From IMG/VR virus record IMGVR_UViG_3300042673_002211, positions 1-64,000 of that record: a stretch of DNA of 64,000 nucleotides. The stretch is one strand, 5' to 3'. Under the pieces are notes generated by a model. That model saw only the letters and a list, made by a program, of their open reading frames with translations, did no database searches and was not told where the DNA came from. Positions 4,829 through 35,994 of this stretch are shown in pieces. Position numbers and translations under genes: made by a program. Within the stretch, counting starts at the first letter, position 1; each line of letters opens with the position of its first letter. Origin of the DNA: a virus.

Positions 4829-4837
4829 ATATTTATA
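4829..4837 (+). promoter_or_regulatory. ATATTTATA putative late promoter (tail sheath)
   Basis: Same 9-mer precedes at least 10 genes at 7-60 nt from the start codon. Confidence 0.65.
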
Positions 4838-13987: not shown

Positions 13988-14287
13988 ATGAATCGTTATC
14001 AAACTATCCCAACTACTAAAACTACCTCAGGTAGAACTATTTACCGAACAGTTAAATATCCTGAGATTCCTTTAAATCCAAATGACATTTATGTTATTGC
14101 CAATAAAGGAGATAGGTATGATATTTTAGCTAACCAATACTATAGCGACTCATCCCTATGGTGGGTTATCTCTACGGCCAATAATAATGTAATCCAAAAT
14201 AGCCTATACCTACCAGAAGGAACTCAAATCCGAATTCCCTCAGACGTTACTTTAGCAATAGATAATTTTGAAGTTATTAACTCATGA
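13988..14287 (+). CDS. LysM / tail X-like baseplate protein
   Basis: GDRYDILANQYYSDSSLWWVISTAN...GTQIRIP. Confidence 0.85.
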   Translation: MNRYQTIPTTKTTSGRTIYRTVKYPEIPLNPNDIYVIANKGDRYDILANQYYSDSSLWWVISTANNNVIQNSLYLPEGTQIRIPSDVTLAIDNFEVINS

Positions 14288-17200
14288 ATTTAATAGGTGA
14301 AAGTTTTGATGATTTTGTAGGGACTCAAGTTAATCTTAGACAAAAATTTTATGGGTCATCAACCACAGTTCTTGAAGGTAGAGAACAATATCTCTATAAT
14401 AAACAACCCTTTATTAAACTAGTCTCTAGTGTTAATATAGAAGCTGCAAAACTAAAAAAATTAGGTTTACCTGAAAGTTTAGCAGGTTCTAATTTAGCTA
14501 AATCTTTTGTATTATTTGCTGGTACTTCTGAATTTAAAGGCCTTAATAATGATGGTCAAGACCAATTTAGTTTTAAAGCAGGTTTAAATAATGATCAATC
14601 TATTTTAGGGGGTTCAGTTTATGGTTTAGGAGGCCTTGAATTTGGTCAAGTACCTATGCCTGGTATAACTTCAGCTACAGTCAGTTATAAAAACAGAGGT
14701 TCATTAAAAACTGCTACTATTAATGTTAAAGCTTATAACACAACTCAATTAAATATAATTGACGCTCTTTATTTAAGATTAGGTTACACTGTTTTATTAG
14801 AATGGGGGTGGGGAGCTAACTATTTAAATAATAAGGGTGAAGTAGTCCCTCAAATAAGAAGAACTTTAGCTAATGAATTTTTAGATGGTACATTAGATAG
14901 TGGAAATATTTTACCTGCAATTACAAGGAGTAGAAGAAATCTAAGTGGCAATTATGATGCTCTTTATGGTACAATAACTAATTTTAATTGGTCATTCAAT
15001 CCAGACGGCACTTATGATATTACTATAAGTTTGGTTAGTGTAGGCAATATTATTGAATCTTTAACTATAAATGATTATATTGGTAAAGGTAATCTTTTAA
15101 CCTCGGATGATTTTCAAGAAGTACTTGATAATGTTAAAAATCAATTAAGTAACCTTCCACAAAATAGATCTATTAATATTAACGGAACTCAAGTTCCAAT
15201 TACTGTAAATTTTCAATCTTATGGTGGAAGTTCTTATGGTGGGGGTGAATATGTAACTATAACTGATAATAATGGTAAACTCTTAGGCTCAGGCCCCTCT
15301 CTTACAGGTCGTTTTACATATGAGGATGAAGCAATCTCAGCCCTCATAACCCTAAATACAGGTTTAGTTTCTCAAACTGAAATAACTGGCTCAGAAATAG
15401 GAGTTGTAGGAGGTAATGCTGGGCTTAATTCTTTAACCTATTATTTATATAAAAACATCCAATTAGAGTTAGATAATCCTAATAAAGCTATAATTCTTTC
15501 AAAAAGAAAAGGACAAATTGATTCAGTATTATCTGTTTTAAAAGATGGTAGCACAACTTATGCTTGTAGAATTAATTGGGAAGGAAAAAGTGCAGTTAAC
15601 GATTATATAAAATTTAGAACACTATTAAGATGGATTCAAGATAATTTAATATATGATAATGTTAATGGTGCCAAAAAATCAAAAGCTATAACTTTTGATT
15701 TAAATGTAGGTGATAATCTTATTTATAAAAATAAATATTCTGTAGCTACTGATTTTACTAAAGTAGTTACTCGTAATATAGGTTATCCTGATTTAAATAC
15801 TGGAGAAAATACTTCAGATACTATTGATCTATTAAACCTTCCACCTGATGTTGAGTTTACTAGTGATAAAAACCCAAATGCGGGTAAATTAATGAATGTT
15901 TTTTTAAACTTAACTTGGTTAGTAGAAACTTTAAAATCTAATGTTGATGACGAAGGTAATATATCATTATTTAGGTTTTTGCAAGGTATATGTCAAGGTA
16001 TAAACTCATCTTTAGGGCATGTTAATAGTTTAGATGTAGTAGTGGATGAAGAAACTAACCAAATTAAATTTATTGATGATAAACCTATCCCCGGTATTCT
16101 AAAAGATTTTAATAAAAATACCACCCCAACTAAATTTCAAGTATATGCTTTTTCTCCAAATGGGGGTAATTTAAGTGGTAGTTTTGTTAGAGATTTTAGT
16201 ATTAGAACAGAGATAACTAATAAATTAGCAACTACTTTAGCAGTTGGAGCACAAGCATTAAATGCCGTTGTAACTGAAAATGCTACAGCTTTACAATCTT
16301 GGAATGAGGGTTTAACAGATAGAACCGCTAAAATTAAACAAGAGGCTACAGATGCCCCAAAATTAGCCTCAACAGAATTTGGAAAATTCAACGAGGCTGG
16401 GTTAAACCCAACTGCTTACTCAAAACTAACCTTATCCCAACAACAAGCTCTTTTACAATCTGTTCAACAAACTCTTCAACCCTCTTCATCTCAAACTGCA
16501 CTCGAAAAATACAAAAATGAGATAGTAGCTTTTGTTACACTACTTGAAAAATATGATGATAAAACTTTAAGTGTAGATGACCTTAGTCAACTAAATAACT
16601 TAAATAAAAACTGGCAAAAATTCTGGTCTCAAACAATAGCCGAAGCAGAACAAAAGGCATCACCCAATGGTGTTGGATTTATTCCTATTAACCTAAATTT
16701 AACAATGGATGGTTTATCAGGTATGAAAATTTACCAAACATTTATCATTGATAGTAAATTTTTACCCTTAAACTATCCCGAAAAACTCCAATTTCTAATT
16801 AAAGGTATTTCACATAATATTGATAGAAATAGTTGGACTACTCAAATTGAAACTTTTAGTATACCTAAAGAAATAACTTCAAATAGCTCACAGGGTACAC
16901 CAGAACCCCAAACCCCAGATACCACAAAAACTGAAAAAGAAATAGGATTCCAAATTAAAGAATCTAATATAAAATACGAAGATAAAGATTCAACTCGTAA
17001 ACCAATTAAAGAATTAACTTATAGTAATAATGCTATAATTTTAATTAAACGTTTTGAAGGACTTAGACTAGAAGCTTATAAACCAACTCCAAAAGATAGA
17101 TGGACTATTGGTTACGGTAGTACATTTTATAAAAATGGAAAAGCAGTTGGTCAAGGAGATAGGTTAGGTTCTGAAAAAGTAGCTACAGAACTTTTAAAAG

Positions 17201-17466
17201 TTTCACTTAATAAATTTGAAAATATTTTAAAAACTAACCTTTCAACAGTTAAACTTAATCAAAATGAGTTTGATGCTTTAACTGCTTTTAATTACAATTT
17301 AGGTCCTAAATGGTCTATAAACAGTGGTCTAAGAGATTTATTAGTAAGTAATAATTACACTGGGGCTGCTAATAAATTACTAGAATACAATACACAAGAT
17401 GGTGAAGTATTAAGAGGTCTAACTAGGCGTAGAAAAGCAGAAAGATTTTTATTTACCAAAATTTAA
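14284..17466 (+). CDS. baseplate hub protein with C-terminal GH24 lysozyme
   Basis: PMPGITSA...LRLGYTVLLEWGW hub-like N-terminus; C-terminal IKRFEGLRLEAY...WTIGYG...QNEFDALTAFNYNLG...GLTRRRKAE. Confidence 0.8.
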   Translation: MNLIGESFDDFVGTQVNLRQKFYGSSTTVLEGREQYLYNKQPFIKLVSSVNIEAAKLKKLGLPESLAGSNLAKSFVLFAGTSEFKGLNNDGQDQFSFKAGLNNDQSILGGSVYGLGGLEFGQVPMPGITSATVSYKNRGSLKTATINVKAYNTTQLNIIDALYLRLGYTVLLEWGWGANYLNNKGEVVPQIRRTLANEFLDGTLDSGNILPAITRSRRNLSGNYDALYGTITNFNWSFNPDGTYDITISLVSVGNIIESLTINDYIGKGNLLTSDDFQEVLDNVKNQLSNLPQNRSININGTQVPITVNFQSYGGSSYGGGEYVTITDNNGKLLGSGPSLTGRFTYEDEAISALITLNTGLVSQTEITGSEIGVVGGNAGLNSLTYYLYKNIQLELDNPNKAIILSKRKGQIDSVLSVLKDGSTTYACRINWEGKSAVNDYIKFRTLLRWIQDNLIYDNVNGAKKSKAITFDLNVGDNLIYKNKYSVATDFTKVVTRNIGYPDLNTGENTSDTIDLLNLPPDVEFTSDKNPNAGKLMNVFLNLTWLVETLKSNVDDEGNISLFRFLQGICQGINSSLGHVNSLDVVVDEETNQIKFIDDKPIPGILKDFNKNTTPTKFQVYAFSPNGGNLSGSFVRDFSIRTEITNKLATTLAVGAQALNAVVTENATALQSWNEGLTDRTAKIKQEATDAPKLASTEFGKFNEAGLNPTAYSKLTLSQQQALLQSVQQTLQPSSSQTALEKYKNEIVAFVTLLEKYDDKTLSVDDLSQLNNLNKNWQKFWSQTIAEAEQKASPNGVGFIPINLNLTMDGLSGMKIYQTFIIDSKFLPLNYPEKLQFLIKGISHNIDRNSWTTQIETFSIPKEITSNSSQGTPEPQTPDTTKTEKEIGFQIKESNIKYEDKDSTRKPIKELTYSNNAIILIKRFEGLRLEAYKPTPKDRWTIGYGSTFYKNGKAVGQGDRLGSEKVATELLKVSLNKFENILKTNLSTVKLNQNEFDALTAFNYNLGPKWSINSGLRDLLVSNNYTGAANKLLEYNTQDGEVLRGLTRRRKAERFLFTKI

Positions 17467-25172: not shown

Positions 25173-26159
25173 ATGGCAAAGAAATTAAATCTGTTGCATG
25201 AGAGAATCATCTACAAACCTTTTGAATACCCTCAAGCTTACGAATACTGGCTAAACCAACAACAGGCACACTGGCTTCATACTGAAATCCCAATGATGTC
25301 TGACCTAAATGATTGGAACTCTAATCTAAATAAAACAGAAAAAAATATTATAGGCTCAATCCTAAAAGGATTTGCCCAAACCGAAACTATTGTAAACGAT
25401 TATTGGTCTGGATTAGTAACTAAATGGTTTAGAAAACCCGAAGTTATAATGATGGCTACAACATTTGGCGCATTTGAAACAATCCACGCCGAAGCTTATT
25501 CTCTATTAAATGAAACACTTGGACTCGATAACTTCTCAGAATTTCTTGAGGATGAAGCTACAATGGCAAAAATTGAAAATCTTATGTCTGTTAGGGATAG
25601 TTTCAATGGCGAAAAAAATGTCCCGGAAATTGCCAAATCATTGGCTATATTCTCAGCCTTTACCGAGGGCGTTAACCTATTCTCTTCATTCGCCATACTA
25701 CTCTCTTTTAAAATGCGAAACAAGCTTAAAGGAGTGGGTCAAATTGTTGAATGGTCTATTAGAGACGAGTCGATGCACTCAGAAGCCGGGTGCTGGTTAT
25801 TTAGAACCCTTATTGAAGAAAATCCGTACCTTAAAACAAAAGAATTAGAGGCAGCAATTAACGAGGCCGCTCTACTTTCACTTAAACTTGAACTTGACTT
25901 TATTGATAAAGTATTTGAGTTAGGTGATCTAGAAGGATGTTCAAAATACGATTTACAAAACTTTATTAAAAATAGAGTTAACACTAAACTTGGTGATTTA
26001 GGATACAACCCCATTATCACCGATATTGACCTAACAGCAGTTGAGCGTATGAAATGGTTTGATCACCTTTCAGCAGGTAAACAACACACCGACTTTTTTG
26101 CTAATAGAGTCACTAACTATTCTAAAGGAACTATGACATGGGACGAATCAATTTTTTAA
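25173..26159 (+). CDS. nrdB: ribonucleotide reductase class Ia beta subunit
   Basis: ETIHAEAY, EGVNLFSSF, RDESMH, HTDFFANRVTNY. Confidence 0.95.
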   Translation: MAKKLNLLHERIIYKPFEYPQAYEYWLNQQQAHWLHTEIPMMSDLNDWNSNLNKTEKNIIGSILKGFAQTETIVNDYWSGLVTKWFRKPEVIMMATTFGAFETIHAEAYSLLNETLGLDNFSEFLEDEATMAKIENLMSVRDSFNGEKNVPEIAKSLAIFSAFTEGVNLFSSFAILLSFKMRNKLKGVGQIVEWSIRDESMHSEAGCWLFRTLIEENPYLKTKELEAAINEAALLSLKLELDFIDKVFELGDLEGCSKYDLQNFIKNRVNTKLGDLGYNPIITDIDLTAVERMKWFDHLSAGKQHTDFFANRVTNYSKGTMTWDESIF

Positions 26160-26172
26160 TAACAAACAAATA

Positions 26173-27882
26173 ATGGACAGTAATTTAGTAGTAGACTACA
26201 CACAATGGGAACGAGGTAAAGACTATCCCGAATTTTTTGATGAAGTAGCCCTTAGTACTATCTCTAGAGGATACTTACTACCAGGTGAAACACCTAAAAA
26301 AGCATACCGAAGAGTAGCTCACGCTGTAGCGTTGCGTTTAAACCGCCCTGAATTAGAGAATAAATTTTTCAAATACATTTGGAATGGATGGATTGGTTTG
26401 GCTAGCCCAGTACTCAGCAATACTGGTACTGATCGTGGGTTACCTATTTCTTGTTTTGGGATTGATACCCCAGATAGTGTCCGAGGAATTGGACTTACTA
26501 ACGCTGAACTTATGCGCCTTACTTCGTACGGTGGTGGTGTGGGAATTTCCCTTAGCCGAATTCGACCAAGAGGTACCTCAATTACAGGAAACGGTAGATC
26601 AGAAGGAGTAGTACCTTGGGCTAAAATCTATGATTCTACTATCATAGCTACTAACCAGGGTTCAGTTAGAAGAGGAGCTGCTTCAGTAAATCTAGATATC
26701 AACCACAAAGATATTCACGAATTTCTTCAAATCCGCAGACCAAAAGGTGATCCTAATAGGCAATGTCTTAATCTACACCAATGCGTTGTTGTTGATGACG
26801 CGTTTATGAAGCGCTTAAATGATCGCGACAGCGATGCTATGTCACTTTGGTTAGAGGTGCTTAAATCACGCGTAGAGACCGGAGAACCATACATTATGTT
26901 TAGCGATAATGTCAACAAAGATAATCCATTGGCGTATAGGATGAATAATCTTGATGTTTCAATGACTAACATTTGTACTGAAATTACTTTACATACAGAC
27001 GAGGAACACTCATTCATTTGTTGTTTATCTTCTCTTAATTTAGCCAAGTATGATGAGTGGAAAGACACTGACTTGGTAGAAACATCTATCTATTTTCTAG
27101 ATGGTGTAATGGAAGAATTTATCCAAAAAACTAATGGTAAAGAATCTATGATTAGATCTCACCGCCATGCTAAAAAAGGTAGAGCACTAGGATTAGGGGT
27201 AATGGGTTGGCATACTTTTCTACAACAAAAGAATTTACCATTCAATTCAATTGCTTCAACAGCCTGGACACACACTATCTTTAGCCAAATCAAAACACAA
27301 GCCGAAGCTGCTTCTCGTAAAATGGCAGTTGAATATGGTGAGCCACTTTGGTGTAAAGGAACAGGTACAAGAAATACACACTTGCTAGCTATTGCTCCTA
27401 CTGTTTCTAACTCGCGCATCAATTCATGTTCAGCAGGTATTGAACCACAACCAGCAAACGTTTATGTTTTCAATGGTGCTAAAGGAACATTTATCGTTAA
27501 AAATCCCGAATTAGAGACATTACTTGAATCTAAAGGACATAATGTAAGTAAAGTATGGGACCAAATTCTAGCAGATAATGGTTCAGTACAGAATTTACCT
27601 AGTTCAATATTGAGTGATGAAGATAAAGAAGTATTTTTAACTTTCCCTGAAATTAACCAGTTAGCTTTAGTTCAACAAGCTGCGGCTCGCCAACGCTATA
27701 TTGACCAAACTCAATCACTTAATGTATCGTTTGACCCAACCGATTCACCAAAATGGATTAATCAAGTTCACATAGAGGCATGGAAACTAGGAATCAAAAC
27801 ACTTTACTATCTACGTACTGATTCAGTGATTAAGGGAGATCTTGGATCTCGCACCGTAGATTGCGTTTCTTGCGATGGGTAG
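26173..27882 (+). CDS. nrdA: ribonucleotide reductase class Ia alpha subunit (no ATP cone)
   Basis: ISCF, TNICTEI, AIAPTVS, KTLYYLR, C-terminal CVSCDG. Confidence 0.95.
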   Translation: MDSNLVVDYTQWERGKDYPEFFDEVALSTISRGYLLPGETPKKAYRRVAHAVALRLNRPELENKFFKYIWNGWIGLASPVLSNTGTDRGLPISCFGIDTPDSVRGIGLTNAELMRLTSYGGGVGISLSRIRPRGTSITGNGRSEGVVPWAKIYDSTIIATNQGSVRRGAASVNLDINHKDIHEFLQIRRPKGDPNRQCLNLHQCVVVDDAFMKRLNDRDSDAMSLWLEVLKSRVETGEPYIMFSDNVNKDNPLAYRMNNLDVSMTNICTEITLHTDEEHSFICCLSSLNLAKYDEWKDTDLVETSIYFLDGVMEEFIQKTNGKESMIRSHRHAKKGRALGLGVMGWHTFLQQKNLPFNSIASTAWTHTIFSQIKTQAEAASRKMAVEYGEPLWCKGTGTRNTHLLAIAPTVSNSRINSCSAGIEPQPANVYVFNGAKGTFIVKNPELETLLESKGHNVSKVWDQILADNGSVQNLPSSILSDEDKEVFLTFPEINQLALVQQAAARQRYIDQTQSLNVSFDPTDSPKWINQVHIEAWKLGIKTLYYLRTDSVIKGDLGSRTVDCVSCDG

Positions 27883-27915
27883 TAATATGTATAACAATAA
27901 CAAATAATATAAATA

Positions 27916-28113
27916 ATGGAATTTTTAAAAAAACTTTGGAACTGGTTACTAGGACAAACTACGGTAGATGAAAAAATTGAAGCTAAAGTAGTTGAAGTCA
28001 AAAAAGAAGTAGCTGAGGTAGTAGAAGCTGTTAAAGTCGTAGTCAAAGAAACTAAAGACGTAGTTAAAACTGTTAAACCCAGAAAACCTCGTAAGCCAAA
28101 AGCTAGTAAATAA
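27916..28113 (+). CDS. small Lys/Val-rich protein with amphipathic N-terminus
   Basis: ORF with ATATGTATA promoter variant at 27885 and a downstream terminator. Confidence 0.7.
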   Translation: MEFLKKLWNWLLGQTTVDEKIEAKVVEVKKEVAEVVEAVKVVVKETKDVVKTVKPRKPRKPKASK

Positions 28114-28136: not shown

Positions 28137-28161
28137 AAGGGCATCTTGTATGCCCTTTTTT
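28137..28161 (+). terminator. intrinsic terminator
   Basis: AAGGGCAT-CTTGT-ATGCCCTT plus T run, abutting ATATTTATA at 28162. Confidence 0.8.
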
Positions 28162-28216
28162 ATATTTATAATAGACCAAAAAGTTTTGAATTTATTAAAT
28201 CTTATAAAGAAAAATA

Positions 28217-29326
28217 ATGAAAAACTTATCCAAAGAAGAGTTATTAAATAGAATGGAGGCTATTAATCGTAGCAACGCTCTTATTTATTTTGATCTTAAT
28301 GGTTTTATTCTTGGAGTGAATTCTATCTTTTTAACAACAATGGGTTATAAAGAGGACGAACATGAAAAAGTTGTTGGTCAGCATCACAGTATTTTTGTTG
28401 CTCCTGAATATGCACAATCAGAAGAATATAAAAGGTTTTGGAAAAAGCTAGGAGAAGGTAACTTTCACGAAGGTGAATTTGAAAGAATAAAAGCAGACGG
28501 AAACATTATCTATCTCCAGGCAACTTATAATCCAATACTTGATGAAAATGGTGTTGTAACTAAGGTAATGAAGGTTGCTTCTGATATTACTACAACTGTA
28601 ATAGCAAAAAATGCAATTAGTGCAATAAATAAAAGTAATGCTATTATATATTTTGATTGTGATGGTTATATACTAGATGCAAACTCCATATTTTTAGAAA
28701 CAATGGGGTATAACAAAAACGATTTAGATAAAATTGTTGGGAAGCACCATAGTATTTTTGTAGGTTATGAGTATGCTAAATCCGAAGAATATAAAGGATT
28801 TTGGCAAAAGCTAAAAAGTGGTAAATTTTTTGAGGGTGAATATGAAAGGATGAGAGTAGATGGTTCTTCTATTTATTTAAAAGCATCCTATAATCCCATA
28901 ATTAGCAACGATGGAACTTGTAAAAAAGTAATGAAAATTGCTACTGACATTACTGATACGATTACTATTAAAAAGCAAGTAGAAGAACTTTCTAAAAATT
29001 TACAGGTTGAATTAGATAATTCAAATAAACTTAAATTATCAATAGAAATAGAAAAAAATAATGCACTAGAAGACTTAGATGCAACTATAAAAAAAAGCCA
29101 AAATGAACTAATTAAAACTATTGTTAAATCAGCTCTATTTGTAATCATGAGTGTTGGGTTTATTACCACTATTATGTACTCATTTGCAATACTTAATGAT
29201 AGAGATACTCAAATAATTGGTTCAACCTGGAGTAACATGTTTAGCGTACTTTTAACGAATGCATTTTCAATTGTAGGCACAATTATGGGTATTAAATATG
29301 CAACACAAGAAGATAAAAAAACTTAA
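28217..29326 (+). CDS. tandem PAS/PAC domain protein with coiled coil and two C-terminal TM helices
   Basis: Two repeats SNA(L/I)IYFD..G.IL..NSIFL.TMGY...VG.HHSIFV...FW.KL..G.F.EGE.ER...DG..IYL.A.YNPI...KVMK.A.DIT; no MCP or kinase output domain. Confidence 0.85.
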   Translation: MKNLSKEELLNRMEAINRSNALIYFDLNGFILGVNSIFLTTMGYKEDEHEKVVGQHHSIFVAPEYAQSEEYKRFWKKLGEGNFHEGEFERIKADGNIIYLQATYNPILDENGVVTKVMKVASDITTTVIAKNAISAINKSNAIIYFDCDGYILDANSIFLETMGYNKNDLDKIVGKHHSIFVGYEYAKSEEYKGFWQKLKSGKFFEGEYERMRVDGSSIYLKASYNPIISNDGTCKKVMKIATDITDTITIKKQVEELSKNLQVELDNSNKLKLSIEIEKNNALEDLDATIKKSQNELIKTIVKSALFVIMSVGFITTIMYSFAILNDRDTQIIGSTWSNMFSVLLTNAFSIVGTIMGIKYATQEDKKT

Positions 29327-29334
29327 AATATATA

Positions 29335-29359
29335 GAAAGGATATTTTATATTCTTTTTT
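29335..29359 (+). terminator. probable intrinsic terminator
   Basis: AAAGGGATAT-TTT-ATATTCTTT plus T run, abutting ATATTTATA at 29360. Confidence 0.55.
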
Positions 29360-29416
29360 ATATTTATAACAAATGTTTTATCCAATAGTTGTATTTAACT
29401 AACTTAAATTTAAATT

Positions 29417-29656
29417 ATGACATTTTCAGATATTTTCAAAGACAAGAGTGATTTTAACGAAAAAACTATCGTAGGATTTTTATCATTCGCGGTAATGGCA
29501 ATTTTTGCCGGAGCTGACGTAGTAACGGGTATTATGGGTAATCATCTCGTAATCAGTGATACAATTTTTAATTCATTTGTAATCATTACTCTTGGTGCTT
29601 TCGGTATTGCTGAAGCAGGTAAGATTTTTGGTGGAAATAAAAAAGGAGAAGAATAA
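29417..29656 (+). CDS. small two-TM membrane protein (holin-like)
   Basis: Two hydrophobic helices, charged C-terminus, TAATG-coupled to endolysin. Confidence 0.6.
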   Translation: MTFSDIFKDKSDFNEKTIVGFLSFAVMAIFAGADVVTGIMGNHLVISDTIFNSFVIITLGAFGIAEAGKIFGGNKKGEE

Positions 29657-30267
29657 TGAGTTTAAAAAGTTTACAAGAGAAGATCGGAGTAGGCGCAGAT
29701 GGTGCTTTCGGTCCTGGTACAATGAAAAAAGCTATGGAGTTTTATAAACTAACTCCAGTAAGAGCAGCACACTTCTTTGCTCAAACAGCTCACGAGACAG
29801 GTGGTTTTAAAGCATTTTCAGAGAACCTAAACTACTCCGCCCAAGGCCTGCAAGGTATCTTTGGAAAGTATTTCCCAGGTACTCTAGAAGAATCTTATGC
29901 TCGCCAACCTGAAAAAATCGCTAACCGTGTTTACGCATCTCGTATGGGTAACGGAGACGAGACTTCAGGTGATGGTTGGAAGTTTAGAGGTAGAGGAGCT
30001 CTACAATTAACAGGTAAAGCCAACTACGAGGCATTCGCAAAGTACTTAGGTAACGATGAAGTTTTAAAAAATCCAGATACAGTTGCTACAAAATACGCTT
30101 TTGAATCAGCAATGTTCTTCTTTGAAAGAAATAAGCTATGGGCAATTTGCGATAAAGGTATCAACGATGCTGCTATCTTAGAACTTACAAAACGTATCAA
30201 CGGTGGTACTCATGGTTTAGAAGACAGAAACGCCAAAACTAAAAAGTATTACGAATACGTTAAATAA
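29656..30267 (+). CDS. GH19 (chitinase-like) endolysin with short PG-binding N-terminus
   Basis: ADGAFGPGT, HFFAQTAHETGGF, ENLNYS, FRGRGALQLTGKANY, TKRINGGTHGLEDR. Confidence 0.92.
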   Translation: MSLKSLQEKIGVGADGAFGPGTMKKAMEFYKLTPVRAAHFFAQTAHETGGFKAFSENLNYSAQGLQGIFGKYFPGTLEESYARQPEKIANRVYASRMGNGDETSGDGWKFRGRGALQLTGKANYEAFAKYLGNDEVLKNPDTVATKYAFESAMFFFERNKLWAICDKGINDAAILELTKRINGGTHGLEDRNAKTKKYYEYVK

Positions 30268-30273
30268 ACTACT

Positions 30274-30711
30274 ATGAAACTAAGCCTCCCACTACTAGCT
30301 ATCACATCATTTACCGCAGGTATAACCTTTATGTGTTCATATTTTATGAATCTAACAATGGCAAATTCTGATCAGTATCTAGCTATAGTGGGAGTAATGT
30401 TTTTAGATGGAGTATTTGGTATGATTGCTGGTACTAGAAGAGAAGGATTCCAAACACGTAAAGCAATTAAAGTACTAAGAAACACCGTTGCGTGGTTAGT
30501 TATTTTAACAGTTATTTTAATGGTTGAACAAGGCTTTGCTGGTACAGCTTGGCTTAGTGAAGTAATTGTAGTACCTTTTATGGTGTTCCAGCTCATAAGT
30601 GCACTTAAAAATGCATCTATGGCGGGATTTATCCAGATGAGTCTATTAAACCAAATCTTGGATAAAATAGATAAACATAAAGGTATAAGAGATGAAGAAC
30701 CTAAAGAATAA
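30274..30711 (+). CDS. phage holin (holin_4-like)
   Basis: Multiple TM helices, FLDGVFGMIAG, QLISALKNAS; follows endolysin. Confidence 0.7.
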   Translation: MKLSLPLLAITSFTAGITFMCSYFMNLTMANSDQYLAIVGVMFLDGVFGMIAGTRREGFQTRKAIKVLRNTVAWLVILTVILMVEQGFAGTAWLSEVIVVPFMVFQLISALKNASMAGFIQMSLLNQILDKIDKHKGIRDEEPKE

Positions 30712-31750
30712 AATATTTCCGCTTTTAATAGCATTATCTGCCCTGTCAGTTTCTGCTTCTGCCGCTTTCTATTCAGTTAGTGGCCTTAGCAAACTCTTTG
30801 CTGGTGCATCACTTGAGGTCATTATTATGGCTTCTTCGCTTGAGGTAGCTAAACTTGTAATTGCTTCCCTGCTTTATCAATATTGGGATTCCTTAAATAA
30901 AGGTTTAAGAGCATACCTAGCAGTAGCAACTTGTGTGCTTATATTAATCACCTCAGCAGGTATCTATGGTTTTTTATCGGGAGCGTATCAGGAAACAGCT
31001 AATAAAGAAGGTATTGTAACTCAACAAATCACTGCTTTGGAAACTAAAAAAGCATTATACGAGGAAACAAGAGATAATTTTTTAGCAGATAGAAAATCAA
31101 ACAACGAGCTTAGAGGTACACTCTCTAAAGGTTCAACTACCCAATTTACAGACAAAAATGGTAATCTAGTAGTTAAAACAAATAATTCAGCTATCCGAAA
31201 CATCGAATCAACAGCTAAAGAAAACGAAAGACTAGCCACTAAACTAGATGTTGTAAATGATTCTATATTTTCTCTTGAAACACAAATTCTAGAGGTTAAA
31301 GTAAATAGTGAAGCAGCAAGTGAACTAGGACCACTTAAATACCTTTCAGAGTTAACTGGGGTAGAGATGAACCGGATTATTAACTGGCTTCTTTTAATAA
31401 TCATCTTTGTATTTGATCCTCTAGCAATCGCTCTAGTTATAGCAGCAAACTTTGCTTTTAACCAATTACGTTCTAAAGAAGGATATGACATGTATAAAGA
31501 TACTCCATTAGAAGAACAAGTAGAAGATAATGAAGGAACTGATATCTATACTGAAACAGAATTAGAAGAATTAAAAGATTGGGATGTAACCTTAAATGAT
31601 GGTTTAGAAGATGAAAAACAACCAAACAATCCAGAACCCGAACCAGCTAAACTAGAGGACGATAAACTATTAAATAATTCAGGTATCTCATCTTGGCGTA
31701 AGAAAAAATTGCGAGATTATTTAGACGGAAATACAAAAACATATTTTTAA
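30692..31750 (+). CDS. membrane protein with extracytoplasmic coiled coil
   Basis: Three N-terminal TMs, coiled coil, ELGPLKY...IIFVFDPLAIAL TM, acidic tail. Confidence 0.7.
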   Translation: MKNLKNKIFPLLIALSALSVSASAAFYSVSGLSKLFAGASLEVIIMASSLEVAKLVIASLLYQYWDSLNKGLRAYLAVATCVLILITSAGIYGFLSGAYQETANKEGIVTQQITALETKKALYEETRDNFLADRKSNNELRGTLSKGSTTQFTDKNGNLVVKTNNSAIRNIESTAKENERLATKLDVVNDSIFSLETQILEVKVNSEAASELGPLKYLSELTGVEMNRIINWLLLIIIFVFDPLAIALVIAANFAFNQLRSKEGYDMYKDTPLEEQVEDNEGTDIYTETELEELKDWDVTLNDGLEDEKQPNNPEPEPAKLEDDKLLNNSGISSWRKKKLRDYLDGNTKTYF

Positions 31751-32610: not shown

Positions 32611-33399
32611 ATGATTAAAGTATCTCACGAAACCCCCCTATGTTTACTAGGGGATAGTCGTTTATTTAACGACTATGATTATTGTCTCCCACATTTGCTC
32701 GATCAAGAGCAAGGATATAAAGACTATTTTACAACCTCTAAAGCACAAGGGCGCTATATTATAATGGATAATTCGCTTCATGAATTAGGTGAAGCATACG
32801 ATAGTGATCGTCTATTATACTGGATTGATCAGTTACGTCCTAATGAGTTTATTGTTCCTGATGTCTGGGAAAACCGAGACAAATCAGTGGTTAATGCCCG
32901 CCAATGGTCTCAGTATAAATTACCTAAAGGGGTAGAAAAAGTAGCAGTAGTTCAAGCAACCACAATTCATGAAGCATCTACTTGTTACCAAACCTATAAA
33001 GATTTAGGTTATAAAAAGATTGCATTCTCGTATGGCGCTTCCTATTACAATGATGTAGTACCTCACCCTAATAAAAATTTAGGTAAAGCACTTGGTCGCC
33101 TATCCGTAATTTCAGCTCTACATAGAACTGGAACTATTGATTCAAACGATCGTGTACATCTATTGGGATGTCAAGTACCACAAGAATTTGGGTGGTATCG
33201 TGGCTTCAATTTTATTGAATCTATTGATACATCTAACCCAGTAATGGCTGCTTTAGAGGGAATGCGTTATTCAAATTCAGGTTTGATTGAAAAACCTAAA
33301 GCAAACATGAACGACTATTTCTTTATGTTATCTGATCAAGTTGATTATGAACTTTTATCTTATAATCTTCTAAAATTCCGTGAAATCAACGATCTATAA
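32611..33399 (+). CDS. TGT-fold protein, putative DpdA-like 7-deazaguanine transglycosylase
   Basis: IMDNSLHE, IVPDV, VAVVQ, HLLG, SIDTSNP motifs in TGT order; directly upstream of queC. Confidence 0.7.
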   Translation: MIKVSHETPLCLLGDSRLFNDYDYCLPHLLDQEQGYKDYFTTSKAQGRYIIMDNSLHELGEAYDSDRLLYWIDQLRPNEFIVPDVWENRDKSVVNARQWSQYKLPKGVEKVAVVQATTIHEASTCYQTYKDLGYKKIAFSYGASYYNDVVPHPNKNLGKALGRLSVISALHRTGTIDSNDRVHLLGCQVPQEFGWYRGFNFIESIDTSNPVMAALEGMRYSNSGLIEKPKANMNDYFFMLSDQVDYELLSYNLLKFREINDL

Positions 33400-33429: not shown

Positions 33430-34260
33430 ATGGCAAAACACGTAGTAGTTTCATTATCCGGGGGAATGGATTCCTCAACATTATTGCTTAGAGCACTAAG
33501 CGAATTTGATACTGTAACAGCAGTATCGTTTGACTACGGTCAAAAACACCGAGTAGAACTTGATCGAGCACGGACCCTAGTTAACTACTTACTTATTCAT
33601 AATAAAATAATTAATTATCAAGTAATTAAACTTGATGGGTTAGCTGATCTACTTAACTCAGCTTTAGTAACAGGTGGGGGTGAAATACCTGAAGGACACT
33701 ATGCTGAAGAAAACATGAAAGCAACAGTTGTTCCTAACCGAAACAAAATCTTCAGTTCAATCACTCAAGCGATTGCTTTATCTATTGCTACTGAGAAAAA
33801 AGAAGAATGTTCTATTGCTTTAGGTATTCACGCCGGTGATCACGCTATTTATCCTGACTGTCGTCAAGAGTTTCGTGACGCTGATGATCATGCTTTCCGA
33901 GTAGGTAACTGGGATAGTGAATTAGTATCATACTGGACTCCATATCTTGAAGGCGATAAGTTCACTATCCTGAAAGACGGAGAGAGATTATGTGAAGAAC
34001 TAGACCTTAATTTTAATCAAATTTATAAACGTACTAATACTTCTTATAAACCACTCCAACATACTATTGAAACACACCCTGGATGGACTGAACTAGTATG
34101 GTTTAGTGATTATAAGTCAGCTTCTTCAGTAGAACGAGTTGAAGCATTTATTAAGCTAGGACGTCCTGATCCTGCATCTTATGCAGATGAGACCGGTCCT
34201 GTAACTTGGGAACATGTAGTAACAGAAGTAACTAAAGTACTAGAAAGTCATGAGCGATAG
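33430..34260 (+). CDS. queC: 7-cyano-7-deazaguanine synthase
   Basis: SLSGGMDSST, FDYGQKH, VVPNRN, HAGDHAIYPDCR. Confidence 0.93.
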   Translation: MAKHVVVSLSGGMDSSTLLLRALSEFDTVTAVSFDYGQKHRVELDRARTLVNYLLIHNKIINYQVIKLDGLADLLNSALVTGGGEIPEGHYAEENMKATVVPNRNKIFSSITQAIALSIATEKKEECSIALGIHAGDHAIYPDCRQEFRDADDHAFRVGNWDSELVSYWTPYLEGDKFTILKDGERLCEELDLNFNQIYKRTNTSYKPLQHTIETHPGWTELVWFSDYKSASSVERVEAFIKLGRPDPASYADETGPVTWEHVVTEVTKVLESHER

Positions 34261-34480
34261 AGATAATTTATATAGAGATATCTTTAATGGTGCAAACAAA
34301 AAACACTGGAAAGAAGAACAAAAAAACAAAAAAATGAAAAAAATCGAAACTTTATTTTTAAAGTATGGACACTGGAGCTTTTTATTTAGCTCACTTTTTG
34401 AAGCATCAAGTAATAGTTGGTTAACAGCTGCTGCTCTTATGTTTCTTTTTATTAATTATCAATATTCAAACAAACAATGA
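34250..34480 (+). CDS. small hypothetical membrane protein
   Basis: ORF overlapping neighbours; hydrophobic C-terminal half. Confidence 0.5.
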   Translation: MSDRDNLYRDIFNGANKKHWKEEQKNKKMKKIETLFLKYGHWSFLFSSLFEASSNSWLTAAALMFLFINYQYSNKQ

Positions 34481-34752
34481 AACAATTATGGTATTTCTCA
34501 GCGGACTGGTGTGGTCCCTGCAAACAATTCGGTCCTTTAATGGACGAACTCGCTAAACCCTGTTTAGCTAGACCTCAAGGTATATCTATTAAAAGACTTA
34601 ATATAGATTACACCCCAGATGCAGCTAAAATTTATAAAATTCAAAGTGTTCCTACAGTTATTCTAGTGGAAGACGAACAAGAAAAAGCACGCTTTACAGG
34701 AACACGTACAATGCAACAAGTAATCGACTTTTATAACCAAAAGAATGGGTAG
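34477..34752 (+). CDS. thioredoxin
   Basis: FSADWCGPCK, IQSVPT. Confidence 0.92.
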   Translation: MKQLWYFSADWCGPCKQFGPLMDELAKPCLARPQGISIKRLNIDYTPDAAKIYKIQSVPTVILVEDEQEKARFTGTRTMQQVIDFYNQKNG

Positions 34753-35209
34753 TTTTAGATCCACTAAAGTATTTGATGGCTATTCTACAGTCTTCCGTCA
34801 GTGGAAAGCTGAAGGAACTCATTGTCGTTTCCTACATGGTTACGGGGTAAGCCTTAGAGTATGGTTTGAAGGTGAACTTGACGAACGCAATTGGGTTTGG
34901 GATTTTGGAGGCATGAAACGTGCTAAAAATACCATTGATGGTAAAAATCCTAAAGAATGGATGGATTATATGCTAGATCATACCACCATTGTAACGGAGG
35001 ATGATCCCGAACTAGAAGGATTTAAAGCAATGGAACGATTTGGAGTTATCCAACTTCGAATTCTCCCAGCTGTTGGAGCAGAACGTTTTGCTGAATATTT
35101 TTATAATAAACTAAATGATTTTGTTCAAATTGAAACAGAAGGACGCGTAAAAGTAGTTCAAGTAGAATTCCGCGAAAACGAAAAAAACACAGCATTTTAT
35201 AAAGGATAA
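34745..35209 (+). CDS. queD: 6-carboxy-5,6,7,8-tetrahydropterin synthase
   Basis: CRFLHGY, WVWDFG, LDHT, AERFAE, ENEKNTA. Confidence 0.9.
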   Translation: MGSFRSTKVFDGYSTVFRQWKAEGTHCRFLHGYGVSLRVWFEGELDERNWVWDFGGMKRAKNTIDGKNPKEWMDYMLDHTTIVTEDDPELEGFKAMERFGVIQLRILPAVGAERFAEYFYNKLNDFVQIETEGRVKVVQVEFRENEKNTAFYKG

Positions 35210-35211
35210 TT

Positions 35212-35994
35212 ATGGCAATAAAAAGAATAGAAGACTATAATAAAATTCTACCTATCGTAGAACTATACACTTGTATCCAATCAGAAGGTAGCCGTGCAGG
35301 TCGTCCTACTGTTGCTGTCCGCACCACGGGTTGTACCCACCGCTGTTACTTCGGTGAAGGTGGTTGGTGCGATTCATGGTACACAAGCATTCACCCTGAA
35401 AAAGGCAAATACAGCTTCCAGGATATTATTAATATTTACGATGCTAATCCTGAAATTAAGGAGATGATGCTAACGGGAGGTTCTCCTACTATGCATCCCA
35501 CTATTGTAAATGAACTAACCCATTTTGCAAATGAAAGACAAATCATCATTACTATTGAAACTGAAGGCTCTGCTTTCGTCGAAACAGATTACCCTCTTGG
35601 CCTTATTAGCTTCAGCCCTAAATTTAGTAATAGCATACCTGTTTTGGGGGCTACTACACCCTTAGGAAGTATTGTAGATCAACGCTTTATTGACACTCAT
35701 AATCGCTTACGTCTAAATAAAGATTCTATCAAGCAATCAATGGCTTATCACTCAGATTATCACATGAAAGTAGTAGTTAACCCTGTTGAGCGTCCAGATG
35801 TTTGGACTGAAATTAGAGCATTTATGGATGAACTGGAGGTACCAAAAGACAAGATCTGGATCATGCCCCCGGGTGATAATCGTGAAGAACTAATCCGTGT
35901 TTACCCTATGGTGATTAACTGGTGTACTGATAATATGTACAACTTCACAGGCCGTGAACACATCATTGCTTTTGATACTAAACGTGAAGTCTAA
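35212..35994 (+). CDS. queE: 7-carboxy-7-deazaguanine synthase (radical SAM)
   Basis: IQSEG, GCTHRC...WCDS, LTGGSP, IETEG, SPK. Confidence 0.9.
   Translation: MAIKRIEDYNKILPIVELYTCIQSEGSRAGRPTVAVRTTGCTHRCYFGEGGWCDSWYTSIHPEKGKYSFQDIINIYDANPEIKEMMLTGGSPTMHPTIVNELTHFANERQIIITIETEGSAFVETDYPLGLISFSPKFSNSIPVLGATTPLGSIVDQRFIDTHNRLRLNKDSIKQSMAYHSDYHMKVVVNPVERPDVWTEIRAFMDELEVPKDKIWIMPPGDNREELIRVYPMVINWCTDNMYNFTGREHIIAFDTKREV

Follow-up and report, generated by a model that had tools for sequence, protein, structure and literature searches.

Lysis timing sets the burst size and fitness of a phage, and the regulators known to act on it (T4 RI and RIII, and the dual-start antiholins) are, to our knowledge, few and drawn from a handful of model phages. 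Class II holins and pinholins such as lambda S107/S105 and phage 21 S71/S68 are proteins of 70–110 amino acids that carry no sensor, with the antiholin made from an alternative start codon. In staphylococci, the two-component system LytSR is tied to the holin- and antiholin-like CidAB/LrgAB. Here, we analyze a viral gene encoding a 369-residue protein (herein the PAS protein) in which two PAS domains are followed by a coiled-coil stalk and a two-transmembrane (2-TM) hairpin, and which lies immediately ahead of a lysis cassette (a 79-residue 2-TM protein, herein tm79; a GH19 endolysin; a four-TM holin; and a further membrane protein). The gene belongs to a stretch of 64,000 nucleotides, positions 1 to 64,000 of the IMG/VR virus record IMGVR_UViG_3300042673_002211, which is referred to as the window throughout. 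We propose, with a probability of roughly 0.5, that the PAS protein is a signal-gated regulator of lysis timing and the one-component form of an undescribed phage signaling system.

Under this proposal, the PAS protein would resemble the T4 antiholins RI and RIII in coupling a signal to the holin, in shifting lysis time and in being accessory to holin and endolysin (see PMC11413866 and PMC8385771). RI, however, relies on a small globular domain for periplasmic sensing and RIII is small and cytoplasmic; neither has a PAS or GAF domain, a stalk or a 2-TM hairpin, and the PAS protein has no sequence relation to either, its sensors being cytoplasmic and replaceable by a kinase/receiver relay. With class II holins and pinholins, it shares a small-loop hairpin, a probable N-in/C-in topology, a polar TM helix, a charged C-terminus and adjacency to an endolysin. 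The PAS tandem is of the same PAS_3 type as in Aer and MmoS and probably as in BdlA and AerC; unlike these proteins, the PAS protein is encoded by a virus and its output is a membrane hairpin rather than a methyl-accepting chemotaxis protein (MCP) domain, kinase or phosphodiesterase. LytSR is host-encoded and transcriptional, LytR binding DNA, whereas the phage receiver described below is a single domain of 145 amino acids with no DNA-binding part, which makes a relay by contact between proteins probable. Under the bolder reading set out below, this would be the first two-component system known to us to act through a membrane effector of a phage instead of through transcription.

The architecture of the PAS protein is well defined by profile searches and structure prediction. 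Pfam PAS_3 scores 85.2 bits (cut-off 25.6) over two stretches of the protein, PAS_9, PAS_4 and PAS are likewise above their cut-offs, and nothing other than the two PAS domains is; AlphaFold2 (AF2) predicts two PAS folds (predicted local distance difference test, pLDDT, >90) and Foldseek returns tandem-PAS matches to 1e-15, all of which place the protein in the PAS superfamily. Both repeats carry the motifs that the original prediction, made from the sequence alone, had singled out: HHSIFV (residues 56–61 and 177–182), FW..L..G (74–81 and 195–202), YNPI (104–107 and 225–228) and K.A.DIT (119–125 and 240–246). The AF2 model (35-row alignment, mean pLDDT 85.7) comprises PAS domains at residues 21–123 and 142–244, an unbroken helix at 246–326, a five-residue loop (327–331) and a second helix at 332–364 (TM2), in agreement with the predicted order of a coiled coil and two TM helices; because helix 246–326 is continuous, the coiled coil runs straight into TM1. 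Given that there is no signal peptide, that lysines flank the cytoplasmic ends and that the loop is acidic or neutral, the topology is probably N-in/C-in with both PAS domains in the cytoplasm. In the translation, TM2 shows a polar stripe of i+3/i+4 spacing (S336, N340, S343, T347, S351, T355) and a GxxxG motif (G354–G358). A Pfam scan of the 369 residues found no match to MCP-signal (E up to 0.1), HisKA/HATPase or GGDEF, bearing out the view that there is no chemoreceptor, kinase or cyclase output. Two candidate identities were rejected: an MCP, as the MCP signaling (MA) domain is absent and residues 246–369 form the stalk helix and hairpin, and a sensor histidine kinase, as HisKA/DHp and HATPase_c are absent from the window protein.

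The hairpin is under extreme constraint. Across 56 distinct full-length proteins (pairwise identity 0.61–0.997, median 0.76), all 34 columns of residues 331–364 are invariant, compared with 112 of 335 columns elsewhere, and the next longest invariant run is of 8 residues. The invariant positions nonetheless use 2–6 synonymous codons each, except W and M, and synonymous sites differ at a rate of 0.40 within residues 331–364 and of 0.36–0.47 elsewhere; synonymous variation is hence normal, and the constraint is on the protein, not the DNA. A plain membrane anchor is not expected to behave in this way, and the hairpin is the likely functional output of the protein. Its holin-like traits are the TM hairpin, a K-rich tail and adjacency to an endolysin; a size of 369 amino acids does not fit. 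Beyond these traits, the hairpin module of the window protein and of ten module relatives matches no Pfam or PHROG family, the best holin profile among module-only relatives is Phage_holin_9 at an E-value of 0.041, short of membership, and a search of the ESM Atlas for look-alikes of residues 250–369 gave no usable match. The possibility that the hairpin is a paralog of tm79, as in a duplicated holin/antiholin pair, was rejected (BLASTP E 0.18, hhalign probability 1.4%).

A TM2 without any variation is what tight packing in a homo-oligomer could call for, and together with the polar stripe and GxxxG motif this raises the question of whether the PAS protein is itself the hole-former, a holin/pinholin-like or ion-conducting hairpin gated by PAS, to which tm79 and the four-TM holin would be secondary. 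Many of the related loci described below do show only tm79, the PAS gene and an endolysin, a Phage_holin_4_1 holin lying within 3 kb in just 20 of 80, and the layout recalls cytoplasm-gated channels such as CorA, in which a cytoplasmic sensor, a stalk helix running into TM1, a short outer loop and a C-terminal TM2 follow one another in the same order, and which hint at a way for a domain in the cytoplasm to control a membrane pore; there is no sequence or fold match to CorA and its signature motif is absent, and the comparison is an analogy only. We nevertheless regard a hole-forming PAS protein as improbable: its length is far above that of any holin known to us and no holin family matches it, the Flavobacterium phage vB_FspM_immuto has a lysis cassette that lacks the PAS gene, and tm79, which in size and shape is as expected for a class II holin, accompanies the endolysin more constantly.

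The stalk behaves as expected if it transmits a conformational signal to the hairpin. In a short form of the protein, in which a small N-terminal domain replaces the PAS domains, the model (pLDDT 89.1) consists of a 35-residue N-domain and a helix of 120 residues that continues into TM1, with a loop and TM2 after it. Between the N-domain motif and a TM-proximal LQKKxQ motif, the distance is 84, 91, 98, 105, 112, 119 or 126 residues in 46 of 61 short-form proteins, these heptad-stepped values making up 7 of the 12 distinct stalk lengths (naive P ~0.0035), and the distance from LQKKxQ to TM2 is 60 residues in all 61. In the PAS form, the DIT motif of PAS-B lies 106 residues from TM2 in all 56 distinct homologs. 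Changes of length by whole heptads, combined with a fixed register at the membrane, are what a signaling coiled coil would be expected to show, and the DIT junction is the usual point at which PAS domains are coupled to an output helix in kinases.

Relatives of the PAS protein are abundant and viral. A protein search gave 5,327 matches among 8,000 scored candidates; the best 120 of these are 325–386 amino acids long, 66–99% identical and contain PAS domains only, and the public clusters are named "methyl-accepting chemotaxis protein" or "PAS domain S-box-containing protein". Such names, and PAS-PAS domains shared with bacteria (matches confined to the PAS part, at 47% identity over residues 2–264 in Pseudoalteromonas and 33% in a Cytophagales metagenome-assembled genome, MAG), would suit a passenger, that is, a fragment of a host PAS chemoreceptor or kinase in which the hairpin is a simple membrane anchor and which serves no particular function. 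This explanation is already disfavored and we consider it highly improbable. The protein has no MCP domain; 227 viral stretches in IMG/VR encode full-length relatives, and among 185,579 species (one genome per species) a full-length copy occurs in only four short MAG contigs, three of which have phage lysis genes adjoining the PAS gene (tblastn); and purifying selection is strong over the full length and strongest on the supposed anchor.

Linkage to lysis genes was examined in 80 of the 227 IMG/VR relatives (62–100% identity, 60 distinct proteins), the open reading frames (ORFs) of these loci being called and clustered and the clusters named via Pfam and PHROGs. Within 3 kb of the PAS-form gene, an endolysin is found in 67 of the 80 loci, a tm79 homolog in 55 and any of endolysin, holin or tm79 in 72, although the loci are related, some being near duplicates, and these counts are not 80 independent events. 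Where both flanks extend for at least 3 kb (36 loci), an endolysin or holin is present in 30. The direct same-strand neighbor is a lysis-type gene in 49/80 loci, mostly at a gap of 40 nt or less, and in 11/80 the gene is sandwiched by two lysis-type genes (as in tm79/PAS gene/GH19, with gaps of 1 and 10 nt). This linkage persists although the local gene order takes 32 distinct forms and the endolysin comes from any of four unrelated families (GH19 in 42 loci, Peptidase_M15_3 in 16, PG_binding_1/phrog_3000 in 10 and GH24 in 6), and linkage that endures reordering and endolysin swaps is a classic sign of a functional tie. The synteny with endolysins that the original prediction left to be checked is thus conserved, and its caution that the linkage was positional only proved too weak a statement, with conservation across related viral loci in reshuffled orders, with swapped endolysins and at operon-like gaps. 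As separate observations, a PPK2 gene (Pfam 6.1e-72) adjoins the PAS-form gene on the opposite strand in five loci (L042–L044, L047 and L051; e.g., L044:3453-4556), and small proteins with a lipoprotein-like signal or an N-terminal TM helix plus coiled coil, encoded nearby at L063:7082-7549 and L013:4629-5276, are possible spanin-like genes.

The same membrane module is found behind other sensor inputs. An exhaustive HMMER search with residues 250–369 gave 96 cluster representatives, and in all 29 that were examined the module is C-terminal, preceded by PAS-PAS, GAF, one PAS or a new N-domain of ~35–70 amino acids. The GAF form (P0133, Pfam GAF 2.5e-17) has seven cluster members, and the short form, of 180–230 amino acids, carries a small new N-domain with the motif LEGNILK...RxKRLxITKQ. 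We define the module family by a C-terminal hairpin (...STWSN.F..LLTN.FSI.GTIMG.K.A...) that follows a coiled coil and a variable N-terminal input and is encoded on viral contigs, and its columns are indeed invariant across 29 PAS-form and short-form sequences. Proteins with odd N-termini (P0128, P0132, P0149) and the single-PAS P0139, from one 1.6-kb contig, may be chimeras or fragments and were not counted as architectures. The expectation that the C-terminal part might occur alone as a holin-like gene was largely not borne out, the module being mostly fused and only two of the 29 relatives being short (~97 amino acids, with an M start). A scan of IMG/VR with the short-form alignment gave at least 594 matching stretches; the search pattern is common to the PAS form, and this figure therefore counts all module genes.

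The short form is associated with signaling genes of its own. In 73 of 79 short-form loci, one of the four genes upstream is receiver-like (142–154 amino acids), and a membrane histidine kinase of 277–718 amino acids precedes it in 67 of 79. All three kinases scanned have HATPase_c above cut-off (1e-14) plus PAS, with or without GAF, and their PAS domain is of the same subtype as those of the window protein, with 49% identity to PAS-B. In the receiver, D9, D10, D63, S94–96 and K116 are invariant in 25 sequences, and the receiver profile matches the response regulators 3ilh (1.2e-6) and 4zyl (6.6e-4) of the PDB, plus two de novo designs. Judged by these sequence features, the kinase and receiver would constitute a virus-borne two-component system that has no DNA-binding output. 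Lysis genes again lie close by: an endolysin or holin is found within 3 kb in 50/79 short-form loci, including endolysins of the Amidase_2 type, and all three full-length GAF-form loci are beside tm79 or GH19. The PAS form and the kinase/receiver form are alternatives: each of five large PAS-form virus records, three of them with a completeness of at least 90%, has a single module and lacks a receiver, as does the window's own record, and each of five short-form records has a receiver and one module. In other genes of the short-form loci, we noted a patatin-like phospholipase (Pfam Patatin 3.6e-21) encoded between kinase and receiver at L119:3000-3989 and also in L121 and L129, and a YceI-like protein (7.3e-42) encoded just upstream of the kinase in other loci.

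The window's PAS gene appears to be expressed as a late-type unit of its own. The 10-mer ATATTTATAA occurs eight times in the window (at 4829, 6985, 8996, 11456, 19808, 28162, 29360 and 33415), each copy just upstream of a + strand gene, and the downstream genes include those for tail sheath (4861), tail tube (7016), the PAS protein, tm79 and QueC; we regard the 10-mer as a candidate late promoter for phages of this group, in line with the late-type promoter originally proposed for the PAS gene. The copies ahead of the PAS gene and tm79 both sit after a hairpin and T run and share exactly a 14-mer containing the motif, TTTTATATTTATAA (29356 at tm79). Since separate motif copies and hairpins precede the PAS gene and tm79, the PAS gene is likely to form its own late-type unit immediately ahead of the lysis unit in this phage. 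The weak terminator predicted after the PAS gene was recovered as an A/U-rich hairpin of −8.6 kcal/mol followed by a T run; it is absent from the output of the terminator scan, in which the hairpin upstream of the PAS gene (28137–28157) is present. Among relatives, only 7 of 70 loci have the exact 10-mer in the 120 nt ahead of the transcription unit, and 19 of 70 have the 9-mer ATATTTATA there, so that the late-promoter reading can be held firmly in this window alone. Contigs of at least 95% identity from all four lake-water metatranscriptome runs examined (14 further runs, with a share of <0.2 of words, were set aside and carry no information on habitat) cover the ORF, and two of the RNA-library contigs extend from inside the PAS ORF across the weak hairpin; such contigs mean presence in RNA libraries only, not transcription.

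From these data, we infer that the hairpin is the effector, not a mere anchor, and that the process on which it acts is lysis. In the regulator of lysis timing that we propose, the PAS gene would be expressed late and its product would be a signaling protein anchored in the inner membrane, with the two cytoplasmic PAS domains as input. Ligand- or redox-dependent changes in the PAS dimer would pass down the coiled-coil stalk, which is rigidly coupled into TM1 in the model, and would alter the packing of the 2-TM output hairpin, whether against other copies of itself, the holin(s) or a conserved component of the membrane. The hairpin would most likely hold back or trigger the holin(s), by direct contact or through changed membrane energization, such that lysis timing depends on the state of the infected cell. 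In the wider system, the same hairpin would be driven by GAF or, via the small N-domain, by a histidine kinase and single-domain receiver of the phage. The original prediction had suggested a ligand-gated holin or antiholin; of this, the idea of a sensor acting on the membrane is strengthened by the GAF and kinase/receiver forms, whereas similarity to a holin family was not found. A bolder reading, which is plausible and which we hold tentatively, is that large phages infecting aquatic Bacteroidota-type hosts possess one- and two-component pathways dedicated to the lysis decision, in which the hairpin gates or triggers the holin; such a "lysis clock override" would read redox, energy or metabolite state, with the receiver docking on the N-domain of the module.

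Several observations weigh against regulation of lysis. Neither Pfam nor PHROG holin and antiholin families match the hairpin, and the hairpin is invariant, whereas tm79 homologs are 38–72% identical to the window copy in the family alignment and the holins 55–66% identical among loci that are not near-identical, which argues against a co-evolving one-to-one contact with a holin; self-assembly (a gated leak that would trigger the holins by depolarization) or a conserved host target is favored instead. A predicted complex of hairpin residues 290–369 (29-row alignment) with tm79 (29 rows) gave no answer (score 0.00) and is no evidence either way. In immuto, the nearest cultured relative, tm79, GH19 and holin are present and the PAS gene is absent, which marks it as accessory, not a core lysis gene or one needed for lysis as such. 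Searches of 50,697 GenBank phage records gave PAS-only matches for the full protein and, by tblastn, no match for the short form, and hence no cultured phage with the module (the literature searched, at abstract level, likewise holds no description of such a system, as the original prediction supposed). The one receiver representative scanned reaches 29.0 bits against a Pfam cut-off of 30.2, and the relatedness of the loci already mentioned also counts here.

There is also the question of whether lysis is the target at all. In 8 of 80 PAS-form loci, and in 28 of 79 of the short form, the 3 kb to either side contain no recognized lysis gene; four of those eight PAS-form loci have ~6 kb on both flanks, and in two of these four (L062 and L069) genes further downstream fall into the same clusters as the window's 5'-3' exonuclease and a helicase-sized protein. 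These loci, the presence in some loci of unrelated accessory genes (YceI-like, patatin-like phospholipase, PPK2) beside kinase/receiver genes, and an invariant hairpin beside variable holins, which suggests a conserved host target, are consistent with a signal-controlled membrane effector that acts outside lysis, for example in superinfection exclusion, on host respiration, proton-motive force or the gliding/secretion machinery, or in defence and counter-defence signaling, its site near lysis genes being a region that collects late accessory membrane genes. We consider this rather unlikely, given that the linkage outlasts the changes of gene order and endolysin family, that the gene is often inside the lysis operon at gaps of 1–13 nt, and that three sensor architectures keep the same neighborhood.

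What can be said of the family as a whole is that a widespread uncultured group of viral genes couples PAS, GAF or kinase/receiver inputs to a highly constrained hairpin inside lysis cassettes. If our proposal holds, phages would integrate intracellular signals into the lysis decision via dedicated signaling hardware, a defined protein would be at hand for asking which signal of the infected cell its virus heeds, and the catalog of one- and two-component signaling would gain a new output domain; the module might also find practical use in switching lysis on or off by a ligand.

On the input side, the nearest solved relatives by sequence are PAS domains that bind flavin adenine dinucleotide (FAD), namely MmoS 3ewk (2e-8) and Aer 8dik (3e-5), and a sequence relation to solved FAD-PAS domains of the Aer/MmoS/NifL type is evident. 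By fold, the nearest are MmoS, DosP, LOV-HK, NifL and FixL, tandem PAS proteins of the flavin, heme and LOV kinds, and the fold search, which returned PAS proteins only, is uninformative on both cofactor and hairpin. In the alignment to 8dik, Aer VRHPD corresponds to FVGYE and KNRR to ERMR, and the Trp after the F-helix is retained; the Aer residues that we take to be FAD contacts are thus mostly replaced. A His-His pair is conserved in both PAS repeats. The cofactor cannot be read from the sequence, and the heme or flavin binding and oxygen or redox sensing invoked in the original prediction are not supported by it. Nothing on the cofactor of BdlA was found in the passages of PMC9769550 consulted.

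Features of the locus are collected in table 1. The cassette downstream of the PAS gene has the order originally described (2-TM protein, GH19 endolysin, holin, membrane protein), with which the Pfam and PHROG matches agree. For tm79, there is no Pfam or PHROG match; a homolog stands ahead of the endolysin in immuto, which lacks the PAS gene. The cluster of the 352-residue membrane protein is present in 22 of the 168 loci and sequences analyzed, usually after the module gene or the holin, and the protein, with its central coiled coil, may have a part in lysis as well, perhaps at the outer membrane.

Table 1. Features of the PAS gene, its flanking signals and the lysis cassette (window coordinates), with related kinase/receiver loci
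Feature	Position	Strand	Basis or remark
PAS-PAS/coiled-coil/2-TM hairpin protein, 369 amino acids	28217..29326	+	ORF, Pfam, AF2
PAS-A, residues 21-123	28277..28585	+	Pfam PAS_3/PAS/PAS_4; AF2 PAS fold, pLDDT >90
PAS-B, residues 142-244, DIT motif at end	28640..28948	+	Pfam PAS_9 at 148-247; AF2
Single long helix, residues 246-326, predicted cytoplasmic coiled-coil stalk into TM1	28952..29194	+	AF2
Invariant 34 residues, 331-364: outer loop, TM2 (polar stripe, GxxxG), juxtamembrane KYATQ	29207..29308	+	
Terminator-like hairpin ending the preceding small gene; T run merges into promoter motif	28137..28157	+	Terminator scan; minimum free energy (MFE) -10.5 kcal/mol, z -2.88
Late-promoter-like motif ATATTTATAA, 46 nt before PAS-gene ATG	28162..28171	+	8 copies in window
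Weak A/U-rich hairpin and T run, boundary of PAS gene and lysis genes	29335..29357	+	MFE -8.6 kcal/mol, centroid -5.8, z -3.16
Late-promoter-like motif, second copy, 48 nt before tm79	29360..29369	+	
tm79, 79-amino-acid 2-TM protein, charged C-terminus	29417..29656	+	Holin-like by shape only
GH19 endolysin	29656..30267	+	Pfam Glyco_hydro_19 9.8e-9; phrog_181 endolysin 9.6e-63
Four-TM holin, Phage_holin_4_1	30274..30711	+	1.9e-6, 28.4 bits vs cut-off 22.2; phrog_199
352-amino-acid multi-TM/coiled-coil protein, acidic tail	30692..31750	+	phrog_4525 at 1.3e-4 only
Kinase/receiver/short-form hairpin gene sets in related loci	L088-L167, e.g. L096:3329-5561, L146:2433-5675		

The window is part of a 73,230-bp viral record with a CheckV completeness of 45%, and all its large ORFs are on the + strand. 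Its tail sheath is 47.7% identical over the full length to that of immuto, a 160-kb myovirus and the sole cultured phage with a full-length tail sheath match, and in a DNA search of GenBank phages the match to immuto is restricted to the lysis genes (71.6% identity, beginning at window position 29414, from tm79 onward). The window represents a freshwater phage related to Flavobacterium phages and, on the strength of these tail sheath and lysis-gene matches, probably a large myophage of a Flavobacterium-like host. Genes for gp32-like, RecA-like, 5'-3' exonuclease and DnaB-like proteins surround the PAS gene region, and two ORFs at 25173–27882 presumably encode ribonucleotide reductase subunits, an assignment that is our reading of the translations and not the result of a scan.

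Directly 5' of the PAS gene, at 27916–28113, is a 65-residue ORF rich in Lys, Val and Glu with a basic tail. Adapter-bearing ends of RNA-library contigs fall at 27913–27917 (two runs) and 28141–28142 (two runs), at the start of this ORF and at the hairpin that follows it; they may reflect an abundant short RNA, which contigs cannot prove. Directly after the lysis region, at 33430–35994, are genes for QueC (2.5e-37) and a PTPS/QueD-like protein (3.1e-16), with a weak radical-SAM match (27.8 bits, cut-off 29.5) that is possibly QueE-like; by homology, this set suggests a 7-deazaguanine pathway for DNA modification. The 262-residue ORF before QueC (32611–33399) has no Pfam match, and its homologs accompany QueC in related loci. 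Finally, the last ~150 residues of a 1060-residue protein encoded at 14284–17466 match phrog_7, a lysozyme-type endolysin (8.6e-38), and this protein is probably a virion-associated (tail) peptidoglycan hydrolase distinct from the GH19 endolysin of the cassette.

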